Shown here: positions 2,837-51,604 of the stretch, one piece after another
Position numbering within the stretch: the first letter of the stretch is position 1
How the letters are laid out: each line of letters starts with the position of its first letter
Assembly (NCBI GenBank): GCA_035505375.1
Contig: DATJQV010000081.1
Location: 30,596 to 94,595 of the forward strand
Direction: 5' to 3'
DNA from: a bacterium
Lineage (GTDB): Bacteria; Hydrothermota; Tepidihabitantia; Tepidihabitantales; Tepidihabitantaceae
Length of the DNA: 64,000 bases
Made by a program: the position numbers and the translations under genes
The notes under the pieces: model-generated
Told to the model about the DNA's origin: nothing
The model's input: only the letters and a program-made list of their open reading frames with translations
Databases searched by the model: none

Positions 2837-2891
2837 AGGTTAGTCAGGATAGCCGCGACACCGGCCGTGTCAAAAGAGAAAGACGGATAGT

Positions 2892-2917
2892 CCAGAATTC
2901 AGAGACCAGAATCCAGA
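2892..2917 (+). repeat. Dispersed word-repeat family F1 (CCAGAATTCAGARACCAGAAWC), copy 1
   Basis: ccagaattcagagaccagaatccaga. Related copies are at 27251, 28098(-), 29060(-) and 31992(-). Confidence 0.7.
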
Positions 2918-3027
2918 TAGCAGGCAATCAGCAGATTCTGCAGACTCCACAGATTCTGTTCTCTCGACAGGGGAAATTGGGCCATCTGCGTAATCTGCGC
3001 AATCTGCGGATACTTGTTGCCCTGGCG

Positions 3028-5712
3028 TCAATCGAGTTTGACGAGTTTCTTGATGGCCCGGAACTCGCCCGCGGCCATGCGGCAGTAGTAGACACCGCGC
3101 GGTACAGCCACACCCCGGTCGTCGCGGCCATCCCACACCAGGGAATAGGTGCGAGGGACGAGGGACTTGGGTGCGGAGAGGACCCGGACCAGAGCGCCGG
3201 TGGCGGAATAGATGTTGATGCTGGTCTGGGTCGTGCGGGGAATGCTGAAGCGGATAGTCGTCTTGCCGGAGAACGGTGTGGGCTGCGCACGGTCGAGCGC
3301 GAATACTCGCGGCAGCGTACCGCGGTCTTCGATGCCGGGCGGCGTTCGTACTACGACTTTCACCGCCACCGTGTCGTTCGCCGGGAACTGGTCGCCAGTG
3401 AGCTTTGTGAAGCAGCTCAGGTCGAAGGTGTCAATCGTGTCCGCAGTCCAGGTGCCGGTGAACTTGACCGTATCGAGCGCCCCGGCCGCAAGTGTGACCT
3501 GGGCCGAATCGGCGTAGGTCGTCCCGATCTTCATCCTGACGGGGAAGGTCTCCTGGTAGGTGCCGAAGTTGCGGACTACGGCAGTCGGTGTCACGACCGT
3601 GCCTGAATCAACTGTATCGGCAGGCGCGACGACCTTCGTCACTCCGACATCGTGGACGTTGCCCACCGTCACCGCGCCGGTGATGACGACCGCGTACGGC
3701 TGACGTCGCGTCACTACGTTCTGCGCTGCTACGCGCAGCGTCCAAAGACCGGCGGCCGGTTGGTTCACGCGGAACATCTCCTCCGGGTCGAGGTTGTTGT
3801 ACGCACCCGATGGGTTCAGAGTTGACTGGCCGTTGGTATAAAGGTCTCCTTTGTAGAAGCCGGCATTGGGCGCGGTCAGCAGGCAATCGAGGTTGTTGAT
3901 AAGCGCCGGGTTCGCGCCGGCCGCGGCCGCGGTGTCGGTCCAGACCACGCCAACGCGCAGCGGCATGGTCGAATCCACGTGGAAGTCGAAATCCCGATAG
4001 TCGCCCGTCGCAAGCCCGGTCGTATCATCGTAGGCAAGCAGCTTGCGCGTGTCGCCGGTGAAGTACAGCACCGAGTCGAGGTCAATCCGGCCCCAGCCGA
4101 TGTACACACTCGGTACTACGTAGCTCTCTACGTCAGGGTCGGCTGATACGAATATCATCGCCTTGAGCATCGCGCTTGAAACATAGCCCCAGGTGTCGGC
4201 CGGTGTCGCGGTGCCGGACGGGTAGTAGCCCTTGCGCAGGTACGAACGGCACAATCCAATGCAGCCATTCACGCAGGGCGAGGCCATCGAGGTGCCGCTC
4301 ATTTGGGCGTAGCCGCTCTCGGAATTCGCAAAGGCTGAGTAGATGTTCTCGCCGGGCACCGAGATATCCGGCTTGATGCGGCCGTCCGGCGCCGGGCCGT
4401 CCGACGAGTAGCTGGACAGCAGGTTTGCGTTTGTCCCGTTCTGCACCGACGTGGCCGCGATGATGGATTTGGCATTACCGGGCTCGGTAATCGTGTACCG
4501 CTGAGTGTGGTACTGATTGCCGGCCGACTTGATAGTTTGGATGTCCCGGTTCTCCCACGAGAACATGTCGAACGTCGCTGAGGCGGTGGTGTATTGTCCC
4601 AGGTCCCCGGTCCACCACGAATTGCCAATGGTGTGCGGACGTAGTTCCGGGTGGCGCAGGTCGTTCGTGATCTCGTTGAGCGGCACTGTGAAATCGTTAC
4701 CGGGAGGCGACGGGATGGGGCTCAGGACGACGATGCGCGCATCCTTGGCGTGCCCATCATATCGGCCAGAGCCGCCATTGGCGGAGTCATTTCCTGCCAT
4801 GGTTCCAGCGACATGCGTGCCGTGGACTGCTGTGTCCCAGACGAAGCTCGTGTCCGCCGGATAGAGTTTGACCGCTACGACCTTGCGGTGGGTCGGGAAC
4901 TCGCCAGTATCGGTGATCGGAACCGACGCGTCGTAGAAGGCCCAGTGGTTCACGTTGAGGCCCTCGTCACTGTAGCCGAGAATCTCGCCGGCTCCACGGA
5001 CGCCATTGTCCCAGACCTTGCGCACGTTCTTGGTCCAGTCTTGCACAACCCACTGGCACGAGTCGTTCTCCGCCTCGGGCCGGTGCCATTCCTCTATCGA
5101 GAACACCCAAGGCAGGCGAGCGATGGCGGCGAGTTGCTCCCGCGAGCAGTCGACCTCGACCACTTTCATGTTCTTCGAGACGCCTGAGCGCACGAACTTG
5201 AGTCCGAGCGCGGCAAGGTCGCGCTTCGCCGCCTCGATGTCCTCGGGGTAGAACAACACGACGGAGACCCGGCCAAAGCCGGTACTGGCAAGCGTGCGCG
5301 ACCAGAGTTTGTACCCGGGCTGGTACACTCCGACCCAGCGCACGAACGGCAGTGCCGCCACTTTCCCGGCGACGGCGCGGTTCATCTTCACGAATGAGAG
5401 GTAGCGTGAGTGGAAGCCCAGGAACTTGCCGCCGGCGCGTTGCAGTTGGTCTATCTGCATACTGTATACCGGACCTCCAAACTGAACGAGATAGTAGCCG
5501 GTTCCGTCTCCCGGGTACTCGCTCATCTGAAGCGCCGGGGGCAACTCGGGCTGCTCGGTCAGGGGGTCGAACTTGCGGCTGTCCCAGAACCCGACCTTGA
5601 AATCACCCGGGTTGGCCTGCGGCGAGAAGCTGCCGCGGCCCGCGGGGCGGAAAGGGTTTGCCGCGAATGTCGTAGCTGCCAAGATGAGCACTGCGGCCAT
5701 GGTCTTCCTCAT
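3028..5712 (-). CDS. Secreted subtilisin-like S8 peptidase with CARDB-like domain and T9SS/FlgD-like C-terminal sorting domain
   Basis: 894 aa. Signal peptide MRKTMAAVLILAATTFA. Catalytic His HGTHVAGTMAG and Ser SGTSMASPCVNG. C-terminus ...INIYSATGALVRVLS...YSLVWDGRDDRGVAVPRGVYYCRMAAGEFRAIKKLVKLD. Confidence 0.9.
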   Translation of the reverse strand: MRKTMAAVLILAATTFAANPFRPAGRGSFSPQANPGDFKVGFWDSRKFDPLTEQPELPPALQMSEYPGDGTGYYLVQFGGPVYSMQIDQLQRAGGKFLGFHSRYLSFVKMNRAVAGKVAALPFVRWVGVYQPGYKLWSRTLASTGFGRVSVVLFYPEDIEAAKRDLAALGLKFVRSGVSKNMKVVEVDCSREQLAAIARLPWVFSIEEWHRPEAENDSCQWVVQDWTKNVRKVWDNGVRGAGEILGYSDEGLNVNHWAFYDASVPITDTGEFPTHRKVVAVKLYPADTSFVWDTAVHGTHVAGTMAGNDSANGGSGRYDGHAKDARIVVLSPIPSPPGNDFTVPLNEITNDLRHPELRPHTIGNSWWTGDLGQYTTASATFDMFSWENRDIQTIKSAGNQYHTQRYTITEPGNAKSIIAATSVQNGTNANLLSSYSSDGPAPDGRIKPDISVPGENIYSAFANSESGYAQMSGTSMASPCVNGCIGLCRSYLRKGYYPSGTATPADTWGYVSSAMLKAMIFVSADPDVESYVVPSVYIGWGRIDLDSVLYFTGDTRKLLAYDDTTGLATGDYRDFDFHVDSTMPLRVGVVWTDTAAAAGANPALINNLDCLLTAPNAGFYKGDLYTNGQSTLNPSGAYNNLDPEEMFRVNQPAAGLWTLRVAAQNVVTRRQPYAVVITGAVTVGNVHDVGVTKVVAPADTVDSGTVVTPTAVVRNFGTYQETFPVRMKIGTTYADSAQVTLAAGALDTVKFTGTWTADTIDTFDLSCFTKLTGDQFPANDTVAVKVVVRTPPGIEDRGTLPRVFALDRAQPTPFSGKTTIRFSIPRTTQTSINIYSATGALVRVLSAPKSLVPRTYSLVWDGRDDRGVAVPRGVYYCRMAAGEFRAIKKLVKLD

Positions 5713-10458: not shown

Positions 10459-12237
10459 TCACCGAAGCCCTTCAAAAACCTTCTGGGCCAATGCGGAACC
10501 GAAGCCCTTGACCTTGGCAATCTCGTCAACGCTGGCCAGCCGGAGCTTGTCAAGCGAGCCGAAGTGTTGGATAAGGACCTTCTTCCGAAACGGCCCGAGC
10601 CCCGGAATCTCATCCAGCTCCGACTCGACCATCTTCTTGCCGCGCAGCTTGCGGTGAAAGGTGATCGCGAACCGGTGCGACTCGTCCCGGATGCGCTTCA
10701 GCAGTTTCAGAGCGGGCGACGTCACCGGAATCGTGATTTCCCTGCCGTCGTCGTAGTAGAGCGTGTCGGTTCGCTTGGCCAGACCGAGAATGGGTATCTC
10801 GGTGTCGAACTGGCCATAGGCCTTCACCGCTGAAGACAACTGCCCCTTGCCGCCGTCAACCAGCACGAGGTCGGGCAACGGCCGGTTCTTCTCCAGCAGA
10901 CCGCGCACCCTCCGCGCCAGAACTTCTTCCATCATCGCGAAGTCGTTCGACCCGGTCACGGTGCGTATCTTGAACAGGCGGTACTGCTGCTTGGTCGGCC
11001 GGTCATCGCGGAACACCACAATCGAGCCGACCGCGTTCGTGCCCTGCGTATTCGAGATGTCCACGCCCTCAATCAGGCGCGGCACCGCGGAGAGTCCGAG
11101 AATGTCGGCCAACTCTCGGTTACCGGCCGGCACTCGTTCCTCCGGTCTCAGTTCGACCAGCGCCTTCTCGGCATTCGCCCGCGCAAGTTCCATCAGCCGC
11201 ACCTTCTCTCCCCGCTCCGGCACGACTATCTTCACCTTTCGTCCCCGCTTCTCGGCAAACAACGCCTCCAGCGCTTCAGCGTCGTCAATCGCCGCGGGCA
11301 GGATAATCTCTTCCGGGATATCGTGGGTGTGAGTGTGTATTGAACGAACCAGAGTGGAGAGCAGTTCGGAATCGGGCGCATTCTCGCCAGCGGTCAGCGG
11401 ATACTCCTCACGCGAAACGATCTTTCCTTCTCTCACTCGAAACAGCGCGGCGACCGCCGACTTCTTCCCGCGGGCCAGCCCGATGATGTCGCGGCTCGTC
11501 TTGTCCTGCACTACCGCCTGCTGGTTCCTGCTGATGTCGCGGAGGGCCATCAATTGGTCTCGCAGCACGGCCGCGGTCTCGAAGTCCTGTGTTTGCGACG
11601 CGGCCCACATCCTCTGCTCGACCTGCTCGACCAGTTCGTCCGACCGGCCGGAGAGGAATCGAATGACGTCGTTTACCTGGCCGGCATACTGCTCCTTTGT
11701 CGCCTTGTCCGCGCACGGTCCGGAGCAGCGGTTCAACTCGAAGTCGAGGCATGGCCGGTTCGGCCTGTCTTCGGGGAGCCGGTACTTGCACGTCCGCATG
11801 CGGAATATGCGCTTCACGGCCTTCAGCGCCTTCCGCAGCTCCCTGGCCGATGTGTACGGCCCAAAGAAGACGCTGCCGTCGTCCTTGAGGTTCCGGGTCA
11901 CGAAGATGCGCGGGTAAGGTTCGGATGCGGTTATCTTGAGATACGGGAACTTCTTGTCGTCGCGCAGCCGCACGTTGTAGCGCGGCTTCTTGAACTTGAT
12001 GAAGTTCTCTTCGAGGATCAGGGCCTCGACTTCGGAACGGGTGATGACCGTTTCGAGGTCGGCGACCTTGCTCACGAGCGACTGCAGCCGCGGGTCTTCC
12101 TTCGGCTGAGTGTAGGCCTGGAGTCGGTCACGAAGCACTCTCGCCTTGCCGACATACAGCACGCGGCCCTTGCTGTCCTTGAGTAGATAGACGCCAGGCG
12201 CCTCGGGCGCGGTGGCGACCTTGTCAGCGAAGCTCAC
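10459..12237 (-). CDS. uvrC: Excinuclease ABC subunit C
   Basis: GIY-YIG start ...APEAPGVYLLKDSKGRVLYVGKARVLRDRLQAY and C-terminal HhH ...IPGLGPFRKKVLIQHFGSLDKLRLASVDEIAKVKGFG. The start is moved to the in-frame GTG at 12237, because the preceding 34 ORF codons translate an intergenic hairpin repeat. Confidence 0.9.
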   Translation of the reverse strand: MSFADKVATAPEAPGVYLLKDSKGRVLYVGKARVLRDRLQAYTQPKEDPRLQSLVSKVADLETVITRSEVEALILEENFIKFKKPRYNVRLRDDKKFPYLKITASEPYPRIFVTRNLKDDGSVFFGPYTSARELRKALKAVKRIFRMRTCKYRLPEDRPNRPCLDFELNRCSGPCADKATKEQYAGQVNDVIRFLSGRSDELVEQVEQRMWAASQTQDFETAAVLRDQLMALRDISRNQQAVVQDKTSRDIIGLARGKKSAVAALFRVREGKIVSREEYPLTAGENAPDSELLSTLVRSIHTHTHDIPEEIILPAAIDDAEALEALFAEKRGRKVKIVVPERGEKVRLMELARANAEKALVELRPEERVPAGNRELADILGLSAVPRLIEGVDISNTQGTNAVGSIVVFRDDRPTKQQYRLFKIRTVTGSNDFAMMEEVLARRVRGLLEKNRPLPDLVLVDGGKGQLSSAVKAYGQFDTEIPILGLAKRTDTLYYDDGREITIPVTSPALKLLKRIRDESHRFAITFHRKLRGKKMVESELDEIPGLGPFRKKVLIQHFGSLDKLRLASVDEIAKVKGFGSALAQKVFEGLR

Positions 12238-12247
12238 AGTGCTACGT

Positions 12248-12368
12248 GCAAACCCGAAGCTCGAAACCCGAATGACGATTGAATGTCCGAATGACCAAAT
12301 GACGAAGGTCAGGTCTGACATTCGGGTTTCGGGTTTCAATCGTCATTCGGACTTCGGAATTCGTCATT
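12248..12368. repeat. Long imperfect inverted repeat built from tandem words (GAAACCCGAA / CCGAATGACG) between the uvrC start and the rtcB stop
   Basis: The 16-nt segment ccgaatgacgattgaa (about 12267-12283) is perfectly complementary to ttcaatcgtcattcgg (about 12333-12348). Flanking words repeat in both arms. A separate small palindrome cgcgcc-cta-ggcgcg lies at about 12369-12384. Confidence 0.6.
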
Positions 12369-12386: not shown

Positions 12387-13931
12387 TCATCCTTTGACCA
12401 CACCCAGCGGCTTCATGCGCGCCACCTTGCGGCAGATGCCTGCCCGTGTGCAGACGTCCACGACCCTGTCCACATCCTTGTAGGCGTCCGGCACTTCCTC
12501 ACGCAGCACCTCGCGGCTGGCGGCCATCACCATGATGCCCTTCGCCCTGAGCTCTTCGGCGACGTTGCGACGCTCGGTCTCCTTGAGCGCGCGGGTACGG
12601 GACCATACCCGGCCGGCGCCATGGCAGGCCGAGCCGAATGTGTCGGTCTCGGCTTTCTCGGTGCCCAGCAGCAGGTACGAACATGTACCCATATCCCCGG
12701 GAATCAACACCGGCTGGCCGAGATGGCGGTAGCGCGACGGCAGGGCGTGGCTGCCGGTCTGATTATGGCACTGGGTTCCGGAACCGGGCCTGGCCGGTCC
12801 GAACGCACGCGTGGCTCCCTTGCGGTGAACGCACAACCTGACGCAATCCTTGCCGACCGCGTGGGTCTCGAACTTGGCGATGTTGTGGGCGACGTCGTAG
12901 ACCTGGCCCATGCCCAGTCGCTCGAACGGAAGCCCGAGCACCTGGCCGAACGCCTCGCGTACCCAATGCGCGATCGCCTGTCGGTTCGCCCAGGCGTAGT
13001 TGGCCGCGCAGACCATCGCCCCGAAATAGCGTTTGCCCTCAGGCGACTCGATGGGCGCGCAGGCGAGCTGCCGGTCAACCAGCTCGATGCCGTACTTCTT
13101 CGAAACCGCGCCGAGCGTCTTCACGTTGTCGTCGCATATCTGGTACCCGAGCCCGCGCGAGCCGGTGTGGATCATTACCGTTATCTGGCCTTCGGCAATC
13201 CCGAGGTCTCGCGCTGCGCCGAGGTCGTAGACCTCGGCCACTTCCTGGATTTCGAGGAAATGGTTGCCCGCTCCGAGCGTGCCCAGTTGCGGCATCCCGC
13301 GTTCCAACGCGCGCTCCGACACTCCGGTCAGGTCGGCCCCGGCCATGGCTCCGTGCTCCTCGGTGAACTCGAGGTCCTCCTCCGTGCCGTAGCCCTTTTC
13401 GACCGCCCAGCGGGCACCCCGGGTCAGGACCTGTGCCACCTCGGTCTGCGAGATGCGGATCTTGCCCTTTGACCCGACGCCGGATGGCACGTTTTCGTAC
13501 ATCGCCCGGACCAGCTTCTCAAGTAGTGGACTGGTGCGGGACATGACCGAATCGTCCGACGATTTGGATCGTGTCCCAAGCCCGAGATCCTCTCGCGTCA
13601 GCTTCGTCCGGAGCATCCGCACGCCGCAATTGATGTCATAGCCCACGCCGCCGGGCGAAATGACGCCCTCGCTCGTCTCGAACGCGGCCACACCGCCGAT
13701 GGGAAAACCGTAGCCCCAGTGGATGTCAGGCATCGCCATAGACTGCCCAACGATCCCGGGCAGGGTCGCGACGTTCGCCACCTGCTCCGGCGCCTGGTCC
13801 TGCTTGATGTCCTCGAGCAGAGAGGTATCCGAGTAGATGATGCCGTCCACGCGCATCTTCGGATTGTAGCTCTTCGGAATCCGCAGCCGGGTATCGTCAA
13901 TCCGCTCTAACGGTCCGTTCCAGGTGGGCAT
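12387..13931 (-). CDS. rtcB: RNA-splicing ligase RtcB (3'-phosphate/5'-hydroxy ligase) carrying an in-frame repeat-element insertion
   Basis: ...GYDINCGVRMLRT...VPSGVGSKG...HTGSRGLGYQI...HRKGATRA...GQPVLIPGDMGT...CHGAGR. The start is trimmed to the ATG at 13931 (MPTWNGPLERIDD...). Confidence 0.9.
   Translation of the reverse strand: MPTWNGPLERIDDTRLRIPKSYNPKMRVDGIIYSDTSLLEDIKQDQAPEQVANVATLPGIVGQSMAMPDIHWGYGFPIGGVAAFETSEGVISPGGVGYDINCGVRMLRTKLTREDLGLGTRSKSSDDSVMSRTSPLLEKLVRAMYENVPSGVGSKGKIRISQTEVAQVLTRGARWAVEKGYGTEEDLEFTEEHGAMAGADLTGVSERALERGMPQLGTLGAGNHFLEIQEVAEVYDLGAARDLGIAEGQITVMIHTGSRGLGYQICDDNVKTLGAVSKKYGIELVDRQLACAPIESPEGKRYFGAMVCAANYAWANRQAIAHWVREAFGQVLGLPFERLGMGQVYDVAHNIAKFETHAVGKDCVRLCVHRKGATRAFGPARPGSGTQCHNQTGSHALPSRYRHLGQPVLIPGDMGTCSYLLLGTEKAETDTFGSACHGAGRVWSRTRALKETERRNVAEELRAKGIMVMAASREVLREEVPDAYKDVDRVVDVCTRAGICRKVARMKPLGVVKG
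13536..13586 (+). repeat. GGGACA hairpin element, copy inside the rtcB coding sequence
   Basis: gcgggacatgacc-gaatcgtccgacgattt-ggatcgtgtcccaagcccgag. Same architecture as the copies at 30536-30588 (+) and 19566-19616 (-). Translated in the rtcB frame as ...GLGTRSKSSDDSVMSRT... Confidence 0.75.
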
Positions 13932-14297
13932 GAGAGAGTATAGAGACGAGGGACACCGTGCGCAACCAGCGACCAGTGCCCCCCAGGACAAGACGAAGTC
14001 AGAACCTAGAAGCTAGAGCACAGACCGCGGAATTCCGGAACACTCCAACCCCTGTAATCTCGCTTCCAACTTCTGGCTTCGTTCGACCATAAACGTTCAC
14101 CAGCAAGTCTCCAATCCCGACACCGAAATCCCGAAGGCACGAAAGACCCGTAACAGACGGGTGCAGAACGCCACCAGCCCGTTTCATTCCGTCTTCGTGT
14201 CTTGGTGGCCGTCAATATCGGACTCAGTCCGGTCATCGCTGCTTGACTCAGGTCTGCCGGAGGCTAAGCTCCCTGCCTTACCCAACAGGAGGACTGT

Positions 14298-15765: not shown

Positions 15766-18270
15766 CTACTGGCTCGACATTACCAGTCGCTTGTGGATGC
15801 GGTCGGTCTTGCCTGAGTGCTCATAGTCGAGCACGTACTCGTAGGTGCCCGGCGCGACATGACGGCTATCGTCATTGGTTCCATCCCAAGGTACGATGTG
15901 GACACCGGCGGTCATTGGCACTTGGTCATTGGTCATTAGTCTACGTACTCTCTCCCCGGCACGGGTGTAGATGGTCAGGCTCACCTTGCCGGCTTCGGGC
16001 AGGCCGATGACAAACGAGGTGCTAGTGCTGAATGGATTCGGGAAGTTGTGGATGGAGAAGCCCGGCATTAGGGTCAGGTTCAAGACGGCTGTGTCCGCAA
16101 CCAGCGTGTCATTGCCCAGGCGCCCGGCTATCAGGAACGTCCGTTGAGCAAGCGACGCCGTATCGCCTATCAAACCAGAAGACGCCGTCACATCGAGCGA
16201 GAACCAGCATGACTCGCCTGGGGCGACGTAGCCAAGGTCAGGTATTCCGTCACCATCCGTGTCCGTCAGGTCCTTCGCGCCGGCCGCGTCACGGAGCCAG
16301 ACGTTCCAACCCGCCGACGCGGACGGCCGCGCCACTTCGACAACTCCGCCAGTGTCTCCCTGAACCAGAGCATAGAATCGATAGGTCTTGCCTTGGCCGG
16401 CCTGGAGCTGGTCCGACTGGTCCGGCCCTATCTGCAACGACTGCGGATACGTCTGCACCGAAGAGCTGACCTTGTCGTTGGCACGGTTCACATCACTCGC
16501 CAGCATCGTCGAGCAACTTACCACCCATTGACCCGGCGGCGCTACCCATTCTGAGAACGTCAGGTCCATGGTGGAGTCAGGCGAGAGCGCCTGCGTTACA
16601 GTCACCGTCCTGCTATAGCCCGTACTGATGCGGAACTGCACCCCGAACAATCGCTCCGCAGTGGTTCCGAAGTTCTTGATTCTCACCTTCGGCATCGCGG
16701 TGTCGCCGGCGCGCAACAAGCCAGGCGGCGCGAGAATCGCGACCGCCCCGACATCGTGCCTCGGCGGGCCGTTCACCTGAATCGACTCTCTGAAGGTATC
16801 ATTGGCCGGTTTCTGGTCACCGGCCAGCGACGTGTAACACGTGACCGGGACTGAACCGACCGGACCCGCAGTCCACGCAGGGAACGCCAGTGTTTCCTGC
16901 GGCACCGAGACCAGCGTCTCCTGTACAGTTTGGGAATAACCGGAGCCGATTTCCATCGTCACCGGGAGTGTACCCGAAGTCAGACCGAAGTTGCGGACGA
17001 CAGCACGCGGGACATACGTGCTACCTGAATCGGCGATTCCGGGTGGCGACAGAATGGCTACCGGGCCGACGTCGAGAACGCCGTTGGTCTTGATGAGAAA
17101 GACGTCATCGCTTCCTGCACCGGCCGAGGCGGTGTAGCCCGCGACGACGTAGCCGCCATCGGCGGCCTGCCGGACCGAGTAGCCTTCGTTGTCGCCCCTG
17201 CCGCCATAGGTTCTGGTCCAGAGCGTGTCGCCCTGAGAATCAGTCTTGACGAGATAGACGTCACCGGGTCCTACAAAATACTGGGAGAAGGTCGCGCCGA
17301 CAATAATGTAGCCACCATCGGCAGTCTGCTGGACCGAGGAGCCGTACCCGCCGGGCGCTCTCCCATACACTCTGGTCCAAAGAGTATCGCCCTGAGCATT
17401 GGTCTTGATGAGATAGACATTAGAGTTGGTAGGTGTCCCCGGACCGAAGGAAGAGGTCCCGCCCCCGATGATATAGCCGCCGTCAGTAGTCTGTTGGACT
17501 GAGTTGCCCACGTCATCGCTTGTCCCGCCATAAGTTCTGGTCCAGAGCGTATCGCCTTGGCCGTTGGTCTTGACAAGGTAGACGTCATACCCCCCTGCAC
17601 CAAACGAGCCGGTACTGCCGGCGATGATGAAGCCGCCATCGGCAGTCTGACAAACCGAGTTCCCCACATCGGTGCTGGCCCCGCCCAAAGCTCGGGTCCA
17701 GAGCGTATCGCCTGAGCTATTTGTCTTGATGAGATAGACATTGGCGCTGTTCGGTGTGCCGGGACCGAAGGAGTAGGTGTAGCCTGCAATGACGTAGCCG
17801 CCATCCGAAGTCTGCTCGACGGAGTTGCCCACTTCGTCATCCAGCCTGCCAATAGCTCTAGTCCAGAGTGTGTCGCCATGAGCGTCGGTCTTGATGAGAT
17901 AGACATTGGCGTAGTCGGGCGCGCCCGGGCCAAAAGTGTTGGTGTAGCCCGCGATGATGTAGCCGCCATCCGAAGTCTGCTGGACAGAGTAGCCCTCGTC
18001 ATCGCCTGTCCCGCCATAGGTTCTGGTCCAAAGCGTATCGCCTTGAGCGTTAGTCTTGATGAGATAGACATCATAATTCCCTGCACCAAAGGACGCAGTC
18101 AGCCCCGCAATGATGTAGCCGCCATCCGAAGACTGCTGGACAGACCGGCCCTCGTCGTCATCTGGCCCGCCGTAGGTTCTCGCCCAGTTCGTCTGGGCAG
18201 AGGCAATCGAAGCAAGGCAGCCAGCGGACAGCAAGACGCTGACCACCGGCAAGACGCCGATCCTCATCAC
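15766..18270 (-). CDS. Large secreted repeat protein: about 7 tandem ~50-aa beta-propeller-like units, CARDB-like domains, T9SS/FlgD-like C-terminal domain
   Basis: 834 aa. Signal MMRIGVLPVVSVLLSAGC. Repeats of GDTLWTRTYGG..DD.G.SVQQT.DGGYIIAG.T.SFG.G..DVYLIKTN. C-terminus ...LTIYTRAGERVRRLM...VPWDGTNDDSRHVAPGTYEYVLDY. Confidence 0.8.
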   Translation of the reverse strand: MMRIGVLPVVSVLLSAGCLASIASAQTNWARTYGGPDDDEGRSVQQSSDGGYIIAGLTASFGAGNYDVYLIKTNAQGDTLWTRTYGGTGDDEGYSVQQTSDGGYIIAGYTNTFGPGAPDYANVYLIKTDAHGDTLWTRAIGRLDDEVGNSVEQTSDGGYVIAGYTYSFGPGTPNSANVYLIKTNSSGDTLWTRALGGASTDVGNSVCQTADGGFIIAGSTGSFGAGGYDVYLVKTNGQGDTLWTRTYGGTSDDVGNSVQQTTDGGYIIGGGTSSFGPGTPTNSNVYLIKTNAQGDTLWTRVYGRAPGGYGSSVQQTADGGYIIVGATFSQYFVGPGDVYLVKTDSQGDTLWTRTYGGRGDNEGYSVRQAADGGYVVAGYTASAGAGSDDVFLIKTNGVLDVGPVAILSPPGIADSGSTYVPRAVVRNFGLTSGTLPVTMEIGSGYSQTVQETLVSVPQETLAFPAWTAGPVGSVPVTCYTSLAGDQKPANDTFRESIQVNGPPRHDVGAVAILAPPGLLRAGDTAMPKVRIKNFGTTAERLFGVQFRISTGYSRTVTVTQALSPDSTMDLTFSEWVAPPGQWVVSCSTMLASDVNRANDKVSSSVQTYPQSLQIGPDQSDQLQAGQGKTYRFYALVQGDTGGVVEVARPSASAGWNVWLRDAAGAKDLTDTDGDGIPDLGYVAPGESCWFSLDVTASSGLIGDTASLAQRTFLIAGRLGNDTLVADTAVLNLTLMPGFSIHNFPNPFSTSTSFVIGLPEAGKVSLTIYTRAGERVRRLMTNDQVPMTAGVHIVPWDGTNDDSRHVAPGTYEYVLDYEHSGKTDRIHKRLVMSSQ

Positions 18271-19501: not shown

Positions 19502-19565
19502 GCGGCTCCTAGATTCCGGCCGGAGAATCTGCGTTATCTGCGTAATCTGCGGTTGTGCCTCTCGG

Positions 19566-19616
19566 TCGGGCTTGGGACACGATCCCAATTGCGGACAATT
19601 GGGTCATGTCCCCGCC
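19566..19616 (-). repeat. GGGACA hairpin element, intergenic copy
   Basis: The reverse complement reads gcggggacatgacc-caattgtccgcaattg-ggatcgtgtcccaagcccgacc. Confidence 0.75.
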
Positions 19617-19827
19617 CGGAACCACGGCATGAGCCTGCTTGTGTCTGTCTGTGTTCATCGGTGTTATCAGTAGTTGCTCTGAGAGACCCTTCGACTCCGC
19701 TTCGTTCCACTCAGGGTGACACTTCGTGTCGTCTGCGGCATCCGCGTAATCACCGGGTACTGCCCGGACCGGGACCGGGAGGGCTTGACTTTTGCTCTTG
19801 TCCGAATATCCTACACTGTCTGATTAT

Positions 19828-27065: not shown

Positions 27066-27250
27066 GCCGCCCAAGCCGGACCACCGGCGCAAGACCAGAC
27101 GAGTGCAGATGCTAGATGCTAGAATGCAGAACACAGAAGTTCGGGGCGCTCAAGCCTCCGCAATCTCGCTTCTCGCTTCTGACTTCGACCATGATTCCTC
27201 GTCCATCTGCGCCGGAATAACCAGTAGCAGCCCGAGAACCGAACGGACAA

Positions 27251-27289
27251 TCCAGAATTCAGAAACCAGAAATCAGAATTCAGAATTCC
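27251..27289 (+). repeat. Word-repeat family F1, copy 2 (upstream of the PIN/TRAM gene)
   Basis: tccagaattcagaaaccagaaatcagaattcagaattcc. Confidence 0.7.
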
Positions 27290-27388
27290 TGAACACTCTA
27301 CCTTCTGTACCCTGCCTTCTGCTTTCTGACTTCGGTCGTACGTTCTCGGGCCATACGCCTCCGGGTACCTGCCCGGGGCGGAGGAGTA

Positions 27389-28019: not shown

Positions 28020-28097
28020 GCTCGTTCTGCCGAATCCAACGAGATAGCCAGGCCCGGATAGATCGGAGGTCAGGACTCAGAATTGCAGGCGTCCGAA

Positions 28098-28133
28098 CTT
28101 CTGATTTCTGGTATCTGAATTCCGGTCTCTGAC
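28098..28133 (-). repeat. Word-repeat family F1, copy 3 (inverted relative to copy 2)
   Basis: The plus strand reads cttctgatttctggtatctgaattccggtctctgac. Confidence 0.7.
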
Positions 28134-29006: not shown

Positions 29007-29059
29007 TCGCCTAGCGCCCCTCGCTGACTGCTTATGGCATCCCGAATCGCCGCGCCGCG

Positions 29060-29106
29060 AATTCTGCTCTCTGGATTCTGGTTTCTGACCTCTGAATTGT
29101 CTGGAT
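29060..29106 (-). repeat. Word-repeat family F1, copy 4
   Basis: The plus strand reads gaattctgctctctggattctggtttctgacctctgaattgtctgga. Confidence 0.65.
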
Positions 29107-30475: not shown

Positions 30476-30535
30476 GAAGCGAGATACTACCGAAGAGAAC
30501 TGCGGGCGCAACCGCAGATTACGCAGATGACGCGG

Positions 30536-30588
30536 GCGGGGACATGACCGAATCCGCCGAGGATTCGGATCGTGTCCCAAGCCCGAAC
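30536..30588 (+). repeat. GGGACA hairpin element, copy upstream of the MATE gene
   Basis: gcggggacatgacc-gaatccgccgaggattc-ggatcgtgtcccaagcccgaacgg. Confidence 0.75.
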
Positions 30589-31746: not shown

Positions 31747-31991
31747 GCAAGCCCCCAGGCGACCCCTATATGCGGATTTTCCGCGACACGACAGTATTTA
31801 ACCGACCGAGAGTAATTGAGTTACGCTCGGTTGGCGAGTGTCACTGAACCTCCAGTTCTTTTTGCCGTCTCGGTGAACCCGGAGTCCACTCGTTCATCGT
31901 TCCACGTCTCCGGTTTTGCCTTTTGGCTCTTGGCTTCTGCCTCTTGACCTCGTCCCCGCCGTCGTGTCCTAAGTCCTCCCCGTTCGGGCAT

Positions 31992-32031
31992 TTCTTGTTT
32001 CTGGTCTCTGAATTCTGGTTTCTGAATTATC
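31992..32031 (-). repeat. Word-repeat family F1, copy 5
   Basis: The plus strand reads ttcttgtttctggtctctgaattctggtttctgaattatc. Confidence 0.65.
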
Positions 32032-35336: not shown

Positions 35337-37664
35337 GTGCAGAAGGGCACGAGCATGAATAGCGATTCACTGAGTCCGAGCGTTCCCCGCATTCCTGGTC
35401 TCAGGGATTCCGTGTCCGGGGCCGCGTACAAGAAGGGCGATGTCATTGGCCAGAAGTATGAGGTCTATGGCATTCTGGGAGCAGGCGGATTCGGCATCGT
35501 CTTTCTGGTCTATTCCCACGAGACCAAGTATGTATACGCCCTGAAGACCTTCCGGGATGAATACCTCGCAGATTCTCATGCGAGAGAGCGGTTTCGCAAG
35601 GAGGCAAGTGTCTGGGTGGACCTGGAGCGACACCCGTATCTTGTGCGGGCCTCCTACGTGGAAGAAGTCGCCGGCAGGTTGTTTGTCGTCATGGAGCATA
35701 TTGCTCCAGACGAGCACGGGCTGAATACACTCGAGGGCTATCTGCGACAAAGGCCACCTGACCTGGCCCAGAGCCTGCGCTGGGCAATCCAGTTCTGCTA
35801 CGGAATGGAATACGCGTACTCAAAGGGCATCCGTTGTCATCGGGACATCAAGCCTGCTAATATCATGATAAGTCAGGACAAGACGGTGAAGATTACAGAC
35901 TTCGGCCTGGCGGGGGTGCTCGGCCCGTCTCAGGCCGTCTCGGGAATCAGGTTGAACATCCAGCAGGGAACGGTCGGTCTGTCAGGCCAGACAATGGAAG
36001 GGACAGGCTTTGGCACACCGACCCACATGTCTCCGGAGCAGTTTACTGACGCTGCCTCCTGTGACGAGAGAAGCGACATCTACTCCTTCGGGGTTGTCCT
36101 GTTCCAGATGGCGAGCGGCGGCCGGCTTCCCTTCCTTACGCCTTTGCCCGAGGTGATAGGAGAATCGGAATCGGCCCGGTTCTGGAGGGAGATGCATCGC
36201 CTGCACACAAGAGCTCCCGTGCCAAAGCTCAACTCGCCGCTGTTTTCCATCATCCACCGCTGTATGGAGAAGGAACCCGGAAAGAGATACAGGGGCTTCG
36301 AGGAACTCCGCGGGGTCCTCGAACCATTGCTCCGACGTCTGACCGGAGAAGCCGTGAGACCGACCGAGTTGGGAACGCTAGAGGCTTGGGAGTGGAGCAA
36401 CAAGGGTTTCAGCCTCGACAGCCTGGGCCGCCACGAAGAGGCGCTTCGCTGCTTTGACAAAGCCCTGGAACTTGACCCGCGGGACGCAGCAGTCTGGAAC
36501 AACAAGGGAACCAGCCTCGGCAGTTTGGGCCGACACGAGGAGGCAATCCGCTGCTACGACAAGGCTCTGGAACTTGACCCGCAGCACACAAGCGCTTGGT
36601 ACAACAAGGGAACCGTCTTCTCCGGCCTGCGCCGCCACGAAGAGGCAATTCGCTGCTACGACAAGGCCTTGGAACTTGACTCGCGTCTGGCGTCGGCTTG
36701 GGAAAACAAGGGTACCAGCATGGGCAGACTAGGCCGCCAAGAGGAGGCTATCCGCTGCTACGACAAGGCTCTGGAACTCGACCCGCGAGATGCAAAAGCA
36801 TGGCGCAACAAGGGCAAGAGACTCGCCGACCTGAGTCGCTACGAAGAGGCGCTTATCTGCTTTGACAAGGCTCGGGAACTTGAGCCGCAGAACACGGAGG
36901 TCTGGTACGACAAGGGGTTCTGCCTCCACCACCTGAGTCGCTACAGTGAAGCAATCCGCTGCTTTGATAAGGCCTTGGAACTCGACCCGCGTCTGGTGTC
37001 GGCTTGGAACAACAAGGCTGTCAGCTTAAGCAGACTGGGCCGCCATGAGGAGCAGATTCGCTGCTACGACAAGGCCCTAGAACTCGACCCGCAGGATGCA
37101 CTAACCTGGCACAACAAGGGCCGTGGCCTCGGCGGCCTGCGCCGCTACGAGGAGGCGATTCGCTGCATCGACAAGGCCCTAGAGCTTGACCCGCAGAAGG
37201 CTGCGGCCTGGTACGACAAGGGGTTCTGCCTCCACCACCTGAATCGCTACGGTGAGGCAATCCACTGCTTTGACGAGGCCTTGGAACTCGACCCGCGGGA
37301 CGCAAGTACCTGGTACAACAAGGGTAGCGACCTCCATACTCTGGGCCGCTACGAGGAGGCGATTCGCTGCTTTGACAAGGCCTCGGAACTTGACCCGCGG
37401 AACGCAAGAACCTGGTACAACAAGGGCTGTTGCCTTGATGACCTAGGCAGGCCCGAGGAGGCCATAGGCTGCTTTGACAAAACCCTGGAACTTGACCCGC
37501 GGTACGGCATGGCATGGTACGCAAGGGCACTGGCACAGGAGAAACTTGGCCGAAGACAGGAGGCGGTTCAGTCGTACAGGCAGTTCATCGCGCTCGCCCC
37601 GGCCCAGCACGCGGAAGAAATCGCATACGCTCGGCAGCGTGTCCGCGAACTGGAAGCGAAGTAA
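35337..37664 (+). CDS. Hanks-type Ser/Thr protein kinase fused to 12 tandem TPR units
   Basis: GAGGFGIVF (G-loop), YALK, HRDIKPANIM, DFGLAG, GTPTHMSPEQ. These are followed by 12 units of ..W.NKG..L..LGRHEEAIRCYDKALELDP.... An alternative start is the ATG at 35355. Confidence 0.9.
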   Translation: MQKGTSMNSDSLSPSVPRIPGLRDSVSGAAYKKGDVIGQKYEVYGILGAGGFGIVFLVYSHETKYVYALKTFRDEYLADSHARERFRKEASVWVDLERHPYLVRASYVEEVAGRLFVVMEHIAPDEHGLNTLEGYLRQRPPDLAQSLRWAIQFCYGMEYAYSKGIRCHRDIKPANIMISQDKTVKITDFGLAGVLGPSQAVSGIRLNIQQGTVGLSGQTMEGTGFGTPTHMSPEQFTDAASCDERSDIYSFGVVLFQMASGGRLPFLTPLPEVIGESESARFWREMHRLHTRAPVPKLNSPLFSIIHRCMEKEPGKRYRGFEELRGVLEPLLRRLTGEAVRPTELGTLEAWEWSNKGFSLDSLGRHEEALRCFDKALELDPRDAAVWNNKGTSLGSLGRHEEAIRCYDKALELDPQHTSAWYNKGTVFSGLRRHEEAIRCYDKALELDSRLASAWENKGTSMGRLGRQEEAIRCYDKALELDPRDAKAWRNKGKRLADLSRYEEALICFDKARELEPQNTEVWYDKGFCLHHLSRYSEAIRCFDKALELDPRLVSAWNNKAVSLSRLGRHEEQIRCYDKALELDPQDALTWHNKGRGLGGLRRYEEAIRCIDKALELDPQKAAAWYDKGFCLHHLNRYGEAIHCFDEALELDPRDASTWYNKGSDLHTLGRYEEAIRCFDKASELDPRNARTWYNKGCCLDDLGRPEEAIGCFDKTLELDPRYGMAWYARALAQEKLGRRQEAVQSYRQFIALAPAQHAEEIAYARQRVRELEAK
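36370..37640 (+). repeat. Tandem ~102-nt DNA repeats encoding the TPR array
   Basis: Recurrent strings such as gaggaggc(a/g)at(c/t)cgctgctacgacaaggc(t/c)ctggaact(t/c)gacccgc recur at ~102-nt spacing. Confidence 0.8.
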
Positions 37665-49195: not shown

Positions 49196-51604
49196 GTGAA
49201 CGTCCGTCCCGCCCGTGGTCCGTACAACCGAAGCGCCCTTGCCCACAACCGGGCCGCGTGCCCCATGGCCGTGCTGTTGGCCATTTGCTGCTGTCTGTCG
49301 GCGGCCAGCGGACAATCCGTGGAAACCACCATCTACCTACCCGGAATGGTAAACCCGGGGTGCCTGGCGTACGACTCGGCCAACAACACCATCTATGTCG
49401 GCGGCGATGGCACCTGTGTGCTCGCGATTGATGGGGCTACGAACCAGAAGATTGCCTGGATCCCAGCCGGGTCGAATGTGGGGGCCATCTGCTACAACCC
49501 GACGAACAACAGGGTCTACTGCGCGAACTGCTGGGACTCCACGGTGACGGTGATAGACGGCGCGACCAACGGGGTCATCGCCACCGTGATAACAGGCAGC
49601 AACCCTCTTGCCCTCTGTTACAACCCGGCCAACAACAAGATCTACTGCGCGAACAACGGGAGCAACAACGTGACCGTGATTGACGGCGCGACCAACGGTG
49701 TCGTCGCGACCGTGCCCGCAGGCAACACGCCTTGGGCTATCTGCTACAATCCTCAGAACAACAGAGTCTACTGCGCGAACTCCGATTTCCTTGGCAACGT
49801 TACAGTAATTGACGGCGCGACTAATGGGGTCGTCGCGACCGTGGCCACAGGCAGCTTTCCTCAGGCCCTCTGTTACAACCCGACCAACAACAGGGTCTAC
49901 AGCGCGAACATGGGGAGCGACAACGTGACCGTGATTGACGGGGCGACCAACGGCGTTATCGCTACCGTGGCCTCAGGCCGTTTCCCAGGGGCATTCTGCT
50001 ACAACCCGACCAACAACAAGGTCTACTGCGTGAATAGGGGAGGCGTAAGCGTGACCGTGATTGACGGCGCGACCGACAGCGTCATCGCGACCACGGGCGC
50101 AGGCAGCGGACCGAACGCCCTCTGCTACGACGCGACCAACAACAATGTCTACTGCGCGAACTTGGGCGACACCACTGTGACCGTGATTGACGGTGTGACT
50201 AACGGGGTCATCGCGACCGTGGCCGCAGGCAACGGACCGTACGCCCTCTGCTACAACCCAACCAACTACAAGGTCTACAGCGCGAATCGGTACGGCAACA
50301 ACGTGACCGTGATTGACGGGGCGACCAACGGCGTTATCACGACCGTGGCCGCAGGCCGCTTCCCTCGGGCACTCTGCTACAACCCGACCGACAATAGGGT
50401 CTACTGCGCGAACGATAGCAGCGCCAACGTGACCGTGATTGACGGCGCTGCCGACAGCATCATCACCACCGTTACTGCAGGTAGCAACCCTCATGCCCTC
50501 TGCCATAACCCGGCCAACAACAAGGTCTACTCCGCGAACAAGGGCAGCAGCAACGTGACCGTGATTGACGGCGCGACCAACGCGGTCATCGCCACCGTGA
50601 TAACAGGTAGCAACCCTCTTGCCCTCTGTTACAACTCGGCCAACGACAAGGTCTACTGCGCGAACGAGGGCAGCGACAACGTGACCGTGATTGACGGTGC
50701 GACGAACGGGGTCATTGTCACAGTGACTGCAGGTAGCAACCCTCTTGCCCTCTGCTACAATCCGGCCAACAACAAGGTCTACTGCGCGAACGAGGGCAGC
50801 GGCGGCGTGACCGTGATTGACGGCGCGACCAACGGGGTCATTGCCAACGTGATGACAGGTAGCAACCCTCTTGCCCTCTGCTACAACCCGACCGACAACA
50901 AGGTCTACTGCGCGAACGGTGGCAGCGGCAACGTAGCCGTGATTGACGGCGCGGCCAACACGGTCATCGCGACCGTGGCCGCAGGCACTAACCCTTGCGC
51001 TCTCGGCTACAATCCGACCAACAACAAGGTATACTGCGCCAACGATAGTAGTGGCAACGTGACCGTGATAGACGGCGCGACAAATGCGGTCGTCGCCACC
51101 GTGATAACAGGTAGCAACCCTCTTGCTCTCTGCTACAACCCGACCATCAACAAGGTCTACTGCGCGAACGGTGGCAGCAACGGCGTGACCGTGATAGACG
51201 GCGCGACCGACGGCGTTGGCGTGACCATCGGGGTCGGCGGGTACCCGATTGATCTAGCCTGGAACCCGGCCCAGAGCCGGATGTATGTCGCGAACTACTA
51301 TGGCTCCACCATCTCAGTCTTGCGCAATTCGCACCCGGGAATCGAGGAGAGCCCCAAGCCGCAGGTCGCATGCTCCAAGCCGTTGCCGACCGTCATCCGC
51401 GGCGTGCTGCTCCTGCCGAAAGCCACAAGCCGCAAGCCGCACGCTGCAAGCTTGCTCGACATCAGCGGCAGGAAGGTGATGGACCTGCGGCCGGGCCCGA
51501 ATGATGTGCGGGCGCTGGCGCCGGGCGTGTACTTCGTGAGGACAGCCCAAACCCAGACTCAAGTCCAAGCCCAAGCCATCCGCAAGGTCGTCCTGACGCG
51601 CTAG
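49196..51604 (+). CDS. Secreted YVTN-family beta-propeller repeat protein (about 15 units) with T9SS-type C-terminal domain
   Basis: AAAGGAGG lies 5 nt before the GTG at 49196. Signal ...MAVLLAICCCLSAASGQ. Units of GSNPLALCYNPANNKVYCAN.GS.NVTVIDGATNGVIATV. C-terminus ...LLDISGRKVMDLRPGPNDVRALAPGVYFVRT...IRKVVLTR. Confidence 0.85.
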   Translation: MNVRPARGPYNRSALAHNRAACPMAVLLAICCCLSAASGQSVETTIYLPGMVNPGCLAYDSANNTIYVGGDGTCVLAIDGATNQKIAWIPAGSNVGAICYNPTNNRVYCANCWDSTVTVIDGATNGVIATVITGSNPLALCYNPANNKIYCANNGSNNVTVIDGATNGVVATVPAGNTPWAICYNPQNNRVYCANSDFLGNVTVIDGATNGVVATVATGSFPQALCYNPTNNRVYSANMGSDNVTVIDGATNGVIATVASGRFPGAFCYNPTNNKVYCVNRGGVSVTVIDGATDSVIATTGAGSGPNALCYDATNNNVYCANLGDTTVTVIDGVTNGVIATVAAGNGPYALCYNPTNYKVYSANRYGNNVTVIDGATNGVITTVAAGRFPRALCYNPTDNRVYCANDSSANVTVIDGAADSIITTVTAGSNPHALCHNPANNKVYSANKGSSNVTVIDGATNAVIATVITGSNPLALCYNSANDKVYCANEGSDNVTVIDGATNGVIVTVTAGSNPLALCYNPANNKVYCANEGSGGVTVIDGATNGVIANVMTGSNPLALCYNPTDNKVYCANGGSGNVAVIDGAANTVIATVAAGTNPCALGYNPTNNKVYCANDSSGNVTVIDGATNAVVATVITGSNPLALCYNPTINKVYCANGGSNGVTVIDGATDGVGVTIGVGGYPIDLAWNPAQSRMYVANYYGSTISVLRNSHPGIEESPKPQVACSKPLPTVIRGVLLLPKATSRKPHAASLLDISGRKVMDLRPGPNDVRALAPGVYFVRTAQTQTQVQAQAIRKVVLTR

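Follow-up and report, generated by a model that had tools for sequence, protein, structure and literature searches.

A short palindromic element read in frame within the RNA ligase gene rtcB of a candidate division WOR-3 bacterium, and its relatives in other phyla

How does a conserved RNA ligase gene come to carry a hairpin-forming repeat in its coding sequence, and is the gene still read through? The question is raised by rtcB in the 64,000-nucleotide stretch of contig DATJQV010000081.1 that we analyzed here (the window). A previous reading of these letters alone (the sequence-only reading) had proposed that a repeated palindrome is inserted in frame in this gene, leaving the frame open and adding a loop of about 15-17 residues, in the manner of the Rickettsia palindromic elements (RPEs). 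The gene, for a 3'-phosphate/5'-hydroxyl RNA ligase, lies on the minus strand (12387..13931) and encodes 514 aa from the Met at 13931; the mechanically called open reading frame (ORF; 12387..13991, minus strand) runs on to a TTG at 13991, and the homologs begin at Met 13931. In a phmmer search of the PDB, the RtcB of P. horikoshii (1uc2/7lfq) was matched over its full length (E=1e-160), as was that of T. thermophilus (2epg), and Pfam PF01139 was found in 8000 RtcB homologs, the top ones being from candidate division WOR-3. The translation across the element reads ...TREDL-GLGTRSKSSDDSVMSRT-SPLLEKLV... with the ORF uninterrupted, as had been proposed. The motifs DINCG, GNHF, HTGSRG, AHN and CHGAGR are all kept, and those matching what we take to be the catalytic residues of the P. 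horikoshii enzyme (Asp95, Cys98, His203, His234, His329 and His404) are all intact, so that the active-site damage that would have marked a pseudogene was not found. The gene therefore looks functional at the sequence level; the insert is probably translated, and the ligase has presumably kept its activity.

In order to define the insertion, the filled window allele (GAT CTC [48 nt] ACC AGT CCA) was compared with the empty alleles of loci L003 (GAC ATG / AAG CCG CCC) and L129 (GAC CTG / ACT CAG CCG). The insertion is therefore 48 nt long and occupies 13536..13583 on the minus strand, and no target-site duplication was observed in this comparison. It is built as GGGCTT-GGGACACGATCC-AAATCGTCGGACGATTC-GGTCATGTCCC-GC and encodes GLGTRSKSSDDSVMSR, 16 codons corresponding to residues 117-132. 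The conserved left arm GGGACACGATCC (13566..13577, minus strand) pairs with the conserved right arm GGTCATGTCCC (13538..13548, minus strand) with one fixed C.A mismatch and one T.G pair, and between them lies a variable inner stem-loop, AAATCG-TCGGA-CGATTC (13549..13565, minus strand), with one A.C mismatch. Other copies of the WOR-3 type show the same unit, GCTT followed by 40 nt and GCGC. In a HMMER alignment the Pyrococcus sequence is gapped opposite GLGTRSKSSDDSVMSRT (exactly 17 residues) and opposite a second segment, ARPGSGTQCHNQT (13 residues). The extra loop is thus of the predicted size, 17 aa relative to Pyrococcus and 16 aa relative to the nearest empty alleles. In an AlphaFold2 model built with 61 homologs (predicted template modelling score 0.88), residues 117-132 form an unstructured coil, with a predicted local distance difference test (pLDDT) below 50 at 121-131, between a strand (103-112) that starts at the DINCG motif and a helix (135-147). 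In the model, which is otherwise confident, the insert forms a loop at the distal end of the strand that leads away from the active site, in agreement with the expected surface loop. In two independent wetland runs, contigs extend across the element into the flanks on both sides with zero mismatches, so the insert is not an assembly artefact; the same filled allele is also present in contigs of two further JGI samples.

The second segment, ARPGSGTQCHNQT (12756-12794, minus strand), contains a perfect 12-nt palindrome, GGTTCCGGAACC, in the DNA. It is present in all relatives of the 498/514-aa classes and is lacking from the 485-aa class and from Pyrococcus, and the AlphaFold model gives it a low pLDDT. 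The segment resembles an insert of older date that is fixed in, and specific to, the clade.

Is the 48-nt insertion an old part of the protein or a recent arrival? The loop was compared among the 120 best RtcB homologs, all from candidate division WOR-3, which form three length classes: those of 485 aa have neither insertion, those of 498 aa have only the 13-residue one, which is clade-wide, and those of about 512-524 aa have both. The site is empty in relatives at 88-95% protein identity, including the nearest one by aligned identity (P0003, 95%). The insertion is therefore lineage-specific and element-sized, and the pattern that had been named as evidence against it, the same segment conserved in orthologs without repeats elsewhere, was not observed. 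Moreover, at least five different inserts occupy this loop among the WOR-3 lineages. Type A (the window, L001/L002, L139 and L141) is the same element in the same frame, and in all four its core begins precisely 6 nt beyond the Asp-Leu codons. Type B (L004, L005 and L140) has the same arms and orientation, an inner stem CAATTCCCCGGGCGGAATTG, and is shifted by 8-14 nt into another frame (GHDPNSPGGIGSC); the idea that it is a reversed type A was rejected, as the orientation is identical and the reading frame differs. The L006 insert consists of the left arm followed by a different, nested hairpin, that of L007 is low-complexity sequence of the GAAGAACGA type, and that of L008 is a CCCTCCCCC/GGGGGAGGG hairpin (-78 kcal/mol as RNA).

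Filled and empty alleles are intermingled in a neighbour-joining tree of RtcB, where the 485-aa clade and the 498-aa clade both include type A as well as type B. The elements in the loop are 92.5-100% identical between lineages, and type B is identical at 43 of 43 positions in three of them, whereas the host rtcB coding sequences of the same lineages share 78-84% nucleotide identity and only 60-69% at synonymous third positions; if 0.81 is taken as the identity per site, a 43/43 match has a probability of about 1e-4. The inserts therefore appear much younger than the divergence of the host genes, the alternatives being old inserts that were homogenised, or constraint at the nucleotide level. 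Among the reads and contigs mapped to the window rtcB, neither an empty-allele variant nor splice-like joints were found. A 371-aa RtcB that starts just past the site (P0104) was considered as a frame-disrupted allele and rejected, because its contig starts at the empty site. A metagenome contig (L129:1-40) starts exactly at the rtcB insertion site, with the empty-allele sequence, and this may be an assembly break caused by a filled/empty polymorphism in the sample.

The element is not confined to rtcB. The 17-mer GGCTTGGGACACGATCC occurs exactly at three window sites, 13566-13582 (-), 19569-19585 (+) and 30567-30583 (-), and 0.29 matches with up to 3 mismatches would be expected by chance in the window. 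The three copies can be aligned over about 50 nt. One is intergenic (19567..19618, plus strand; core 19574-19612), has an outer stem CGGGC/GCCCG and lies in no ORF open for at least 70 codons on both sides; direct translation gives the peptide VGLGTRSQLRTIG that the sequence-only reading had ascribed to it. The other is located in an intergenic upstream region (30533..30585, minus strand; core 30539-30578). The inner stem varies compensatorily among the three copies (AATCG/CGATT, AATTG/CAATT and AATCC/GGATT). As DNA, the 19567 copy folds at -20.3 kcal/mol (z -4.5) and the 30533 copy at -20.5 kcal/mol (z -4.25); the rtcB copy folds more weakly (sense strand, -10.9 kcal/mol with z -1.1; opposite strand, -15 kcal/mol with z -3.0) because of the one A.C mismatch in its inner stem.

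The distribution of the element was then analyzed with the exact pattern GGGACACGATCC-N10-30-GGTCATGTCCC, using one genome per species. At least 120 stretches from more than 12 phyla contain the unchanged core, and about 0.35 chance matches would be expected for the whole collection by our own estimate from its size and the 23 fixed bases. The hosts include WOR-3, Armatimonadota, Acidobacteriota/Aminicenantes, Planctomycetota, Desulfobacterota and Syntrophia, Bipolaricaulota, Chloroflexota (Dehalococcoidales and Chloroflexia), Firmicutes, Actinomycetes, Myxococcota and Alphaproteobacteria; nine further matches come from viral contigs, so the element is not phage-specific. The left arm is invariant in 151 copies from many phyla, a figure from which arm variability cannot be read because the pattern itself demanded exact arms; the seven rtcB copies, found by protein similarity and not by the pattern, likewise have perfect arms. 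The outer stem, of about 8 bp, and the inner stem-loop differ from genome to genome, and the 12/11-nt arms with their C.A mismatch and T.G pair are constant. At least six consecutive Watson-Crick pairs form the inner stem in 112 of the 148 unique copies, with at least 25 different sequences, and in 85-95% of the copies five of the six frames contain no stop codon.

The copies lie mostly between genes. Of those that could be evaluated, about 15% are genic, as judged by an ORF open for at least 70 codons on both sides together with a coding signal in third-position GC content (GC3). Genic copies occur in both orientations, and within the Pfam domains of a pyruvate:ferredoxin-type oxidoreductase (POR), KdpD, two amidohydrolases (one HutI-like), methylenetetrahydrofolate reductase (MTHFR) and UvrC; no target motif shared among the genic sites was found. 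A contig of a wetland metatranscriptome keeps a copy in frame (VLVLP-RDMTESSDDLDRVPR-PALVDIPGRK) within an ORF similar to a C-terminal domain of type IX secretion (T9SS). A search of Rfam with the whole window at gathering thresholds, and with one copy at permissive E-values, gave only chance miRNA-like hairpin matches, and a literature search with the exact arm sequences gave only unrelated primer matches.

Several copies are arranged in a more complex manner. In a Desulfarculaceae genome (L012:4554-4604) a complete element lies in the MTHFR (MetF) Pfam domain, where it is read as RDTILRLRDLNGLRVMSH; a single Pfam stretch spans the element, which may replace native sequence rather than add to it. 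An acidobacterial locus (L020:6400-6750) contains four tandem left half-sites (GGGGACACGATCCGATCG), one hairpin centre and three right half-sites (CCGGTCATGTCCCC...), and reverse arms are found in the flanks of the copies at L016, L046 and L069. Judged from the sequence, such nested arrays and reverse flank arms would fit a history in which elements inserted at the apex of hairpins already present. In Desulfocapsa CAZIDU (L019, L057, L067, L073, L101 and L114) the hairpin forms part of a longer repeat, of about 190 nt, with terminal inverted repeats (TIRs) of its own (GTAACTATTCACC...GGTGAATAGTTAC), apparently a composite MITE (a miniature transposable element with inverted repeats).

What could have moved such an element? 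A candidate was found in Magnetovibrio (L112), where a 212-aa ORF (gene 1622-2257) lies between clustered hairpin copies. It matches Pfam Y1_Tnp (E=1e-10) and the NCBIfam model of the REP-associated tyrosine transposases (RAYTs; REP, repetitive extragenic palindrome), REP_Tyr_transpos, at 68.5 bits with a cut-off of 80. Exact-core hairpins at 1523-1562, 2252-2291 and 2318-2357 lie about 60 nt upstream and directly downstream of the gene. Another alphaproteobacterium (L038) has a gene (4855-5490) 73% identical to that of L112, with an exact-core hairpin (4737-4776) 79 nt upstream. The family is very large, 65-77% identical across phyla and often present as a multi-copy unit, like an insertion sequence (IS), on short contigs, and such conservation of the transposase would explain that of the arms. 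About 12 of 15 inspected metagenomic homologs are bracketed by GGGGACAC(C/A)ATAC... and ...GTAT(G/T)GTGTCCCC, and perfect 19-bp inverted repeats, GGGGACACCATACTTATCT and AGATAAGTATGGTGTCCCC, surround a homolog in a member of the Bipolaricaulota (L222). In the plasmid collection only homologs of at most 43% identity, annotated 'transposase', were found. At L112:1144-2257 the Y1 gene is present in two tandem copies, the first truncated, each preceded by GGGGACACGTACC... and then an exact-core hairpin.

The neighbouring uvrC gene was also compared. It adjoins rtcB and has three in-frame insertion sites in the relatives, after RTCKxRL, after ALEALL and after FKIR (L001:9407-11266, L003:11615-13447, L004:11639-13639, L006:4233-6176, L007:11638-13761 and L008:11640-13514). 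One site contains a type B element with low-complexity sequence, another a second hairpin family (SPSPFPPPQGGGN; TERRSKRASPSPFPPPQGGGNRREGG), and the third a reverse-orientation core with a nested insert. The uvrC gene of the window (10459-12267) has no inserts. As uvrC has three such sites in the same relatives, rtcB is not special.

Taken together, these observations make it probable that the rtcB insert is a 48-nt non-autonomous mobile hairpin, comparable to the RPEs or to intragenic REPs, which is tolerated in a permissive loop. The hairpin would consist of the two inverted terminal arms of a RAYT-like Y1 unit (HUH type, IS200-like) and a short stem-loop, with the transposase gene deleted, and could be compared to a REPIN or to a paired-TIR repeat of a 'TIRtron'. 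Y1 transposases of the IS200/IS605 type work on single-stranded hairpins, without target duplication and with precise excision, a behaviour that would fit both the absent duplication and the patchy pattern of filled and empty alleles. In the window's WOR-3 genome the element was presumably mobilised in trans by a transposase of this kind. Such elements would bombard genomes and land mostly between genes, and genic copies would persist only if in frame, stop-free and located in structurally permissive loops, such as the rtcB loop about 14 residues downstream of the metal-binding Cys. The insert's length is divisible by three and stop codons are missing from five of its six frames, so that it would simply be translated as a disordered loop of 16 residues in a functional RtcB. 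This tolerance filter, perhaps together with a target preference and with insertion into existing hairpins, which could concentrate hits at an occupied site, would account for the recurrent use of the loop in many WOR-3 lineages. The gains would be recent relative to host-gene divergence, and precise excision may add to the patchiness.

It is important to mention the results that weigh against this explanation. Searches of the window and of the 8-kb flanks around about 120 copies from outside the Alphaproteobacteria revealed no gene for a Y1 transposase; in these flanks all-against-all BLAST gave, instead of a recurrent transposase, only recurring ABC ATPases, kinases and secreted repeat proteins. 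The exact GATCC-type core was found within 2.5 kb in 0 of 80 metagenomic transposase homologs (57-71% identity), which have related but different arms, so the link between the exact core and the transposase rests on two loci. Of the arms, GGGGACAC conforms to the GGGGWSAS motif of TIRtrons, and the fourth G is present in 82 of 151 hairpin copies, but the WOR-3 copies, including the rtcB insert, start with TGGGACAC (TGGG and not GGGG) and are one G short. Two further results concern the loop itself: none of the other RtcB loops has such an insert in the 120 homologs, and type A lies at an identical nucleotide in four divergent lineages, which random insertion followed by a filter does not explain and which hints at targeting or allele transfer, neither being separable from selection here.

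These last results are what would be expected if the element were acquired by a homing-like, site-specific process, in which it or its transposase recognised a sequence or structure at this very spot of rtcB, or if the filled allele were spread by recombination with short conversion tracts, the hot spot then reflecting targeting and not tolerance. The shared start of type A in lineages whose rtcB genes differ by about 20% in nucleotide sequence, the 43/43 identity of type B, inner-stem variants that disagree with the RtcB tree and the break of the L129 contig exactly at the site all point in this direction. On the other hand, the inserts of types A and B and those of L006, L007 and L008 differ in their boundaries within the loop, which is shared by unrelated hairpins and low-complexity sequence; uvrC behaves alike, with several inserts at three sites; the flanks of the insert are no more alike between filled lineages than elsewhere; and the genic sites have no common target motif. 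We therefore consider this explanation unlikely, though one to be kept in mind. The bolder form of it, in which the hairpin is actively targeted to the rtcB loop and comparable uvrC loops across lineages and might also serve the RNA-repair pathway, is quite doubtful; if true, it would mean that a non-autonomous derivative of a Y1 transposon homes to specific sites in conserved repair genes.

Could the hairpin instead be useful where it is, as an mRNA or DNA structure that regulates rtcB (by pausing, RNase processing or as a decoy or sensor for RNA repair) or as a functional extra loop of the ligase? The five insert types at the site are all strong hairpins that encode unrelated peptides, the arms are perfectly conserved in the gene while synonymous sites are near saturation, and a compensatory change keeps the inner stem between the window and L001. 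However, recent insertion also explains the conservation of the arms, most close relatives have no insert at all, the genic copy in the window folds worse than the intergenic ones, and copies of the same element are found within many unrelated genes in either orientation and, for the most part, between genes. As the peptide changes with the reading frame, a role at the protein level is unlikely, and a useful hairpin in general appears improbable. RtcB is itself a ligase that reseals RNA cuts, and inteins reside in archaeal rtcB genes, two points in favour of an insert removed from the mature enzyme, by an intron-like RNA excision resealed by RtcB or as a mini-intein. Nevertheless, we give this hardly any weight: all inserts at the site are stop-free and a multiple of three, which would be needless if they were removed, 16 residues are too few for intein motifs, no Rfam family was matched, the mapped contigs contain no joints and the metatranscriptome contig retains its copy in frame in another gene. 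No sign of removal at the RNA level was seen in the sole RNA run, which has no rtcB coverage beyond repeat-derived pieces.

How does a mobile hairpin of this kind compare with known systems? The REP and REPIN-RAYT systems, reportedly set out by Nunvar in 2010, Bertels and Rainey in 2011 and Ton-Hoang in 2012, are similar in being non-autonomous hairpins of two inverted repeats, without target duplication and mostly extragenic, that presumably owe their movement to a domesticated, single-copy Y1 transposase acting in trans, the gene of which is flanked by the repeats (PMC8049555 was also used for this comparison). A Y1 gene flanked by the repeats, as in a REPtron, was found here at the two alphaproteobacterial loci only (L112 and L038). 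Classical REPs differ in their GTAG tag and in being species- or genus-specific, and the transposase described here scores below the cut-off (68.5 against 80 bits) and is often multi-copy and IS-like. The tags are practically lacking from our 151 copies: GTAG or CTAC was found in none on the 5' side and in 4 on the 3' side, and CGTC or its complement within 6 nt in 3 on the 5' side and 6 on the 3' side, so that the element does not group with the GTAG or CGTC REPs. Intragenic copies have been reported for both of these classes, the RPEs being treated as CGTC REPs, in several phyla and many of them in DNA-repair genes (PMC3733652). There they form segments of 20-30 aa in excinuclease ABC, UvrD, RecBCD and polymerase genes, which resembles the adjacent rtcB and uvrC here; the repeat family and the phylum are different, and repeated independent use of one loop is not described in that work.

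The transposase homologs and the hairpins match the description of the TIRtrons or TIRYTs of Di Nocera, De Gregorio and Rocco (2013; PMC3733652), which are RAYT-like genes located between inverted repeats that share GGGGWSAS; their repeats are dispersed as singles, dimers and clusters, and are moderately abundant in a few genomes only. Inverted repeats likewise bracket the transposase homologs identified here, the hairpins are single or clustered and GGGGACAC fits the motif. In contrast, the paired-arm hairpin is abundant, spread across phyla and in frame in genes, and in WOR-3 it starts with TGGGACAC; PMC3733652 gives no intragenic TIR repeats, only GTAG and CGTC REPs. As for the RPEs (Ogata et al. 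2000, as far as summarised in PMC10969869 and PMC3733652), they too are short palindromic selfish repeats that are found between genes and in frame in conserved genes, translated into additional surface segments that the fold can accommodate, and patchy among related genomes. According to the same summaries, RPE-1 is about 100-150 bp long and the shorter RPEs are CGTC-tagged, and they are confined to Rickettsia with no known transposase. The rtcB element differs from them, by comparison with the published descriptions of RPEs, in its 48 nt, the lack of a CGTC/GTAG tag, the invariant core in more than 12 phyla and the link to a Y1 transposase. The analogy drawn in the sequence-only reading thus holds as a description of how the element works; as to novelty, in-frame palindromes are not restricted to Rickettsia, further in-frame MITEs being named in a 2024 review (PMC10969869), and the element belongs to a cross-phylum family and is not specific to this organism. 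Classical MITEs, derived from ISs of the DDE type, share the inverted arms but leave a target-site duplication, which is absent here. Repeats of this kind, palindromes within genes that are moved by RAYT-type systems or descend from them, are known; the host phylum and gene, the paired-arm TIRYT-type hairpin with a cross-phylum core and the recurrent recent use of one loop are new.

In-frame selfish DNA, best known from Rickettsia, is thus extended to the uncultured phylum WOR-3 and to a RAYT-linked class of elements. Filled and empty alleles at one loop offer a natural experiment on the tolerance of proteins to inserts and on the target choice of Y1 derivatives, and the 23-nt core, the same across more than 12 phyla, would be a tractable object of biochemistry together with the strongly conserved family of transposases. 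Gene calls in metagenome-assembled genomes are also inflated and fragmented by such inserts, which can interrupt the assembly itself.

Other repeats were also observed in this genome and its relatives. Short periodic repeats of about 7 nt (CAGAAAC/CAGAATT..., ATCTGCG TAATCTGCG...) fill the intergenic regions of the window (2886-3008, 13984-14088, 19517-19559, 27090-27334, 28086-28132, 29059-29101, 30505-30533 and 31898-32028). In translated form (QKPEARMQKSEIQNP...), they are in-frame inserts in uvrC of L007 and L008 and are part of the L007 rtcB insert. Large secreted proteins with tandem repeats are encoded at 15766-18270, 36281-37600 and 49414-51354, with periods of about 160, 102 and 126 nt. 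Additionally, in related genomes, paralogous C-terminal sorting domains of proteins of this sort often have the hairpin element just before the ...LLDAAGR... motif (L021, L025, L048, L056, L081, L086 and L096).

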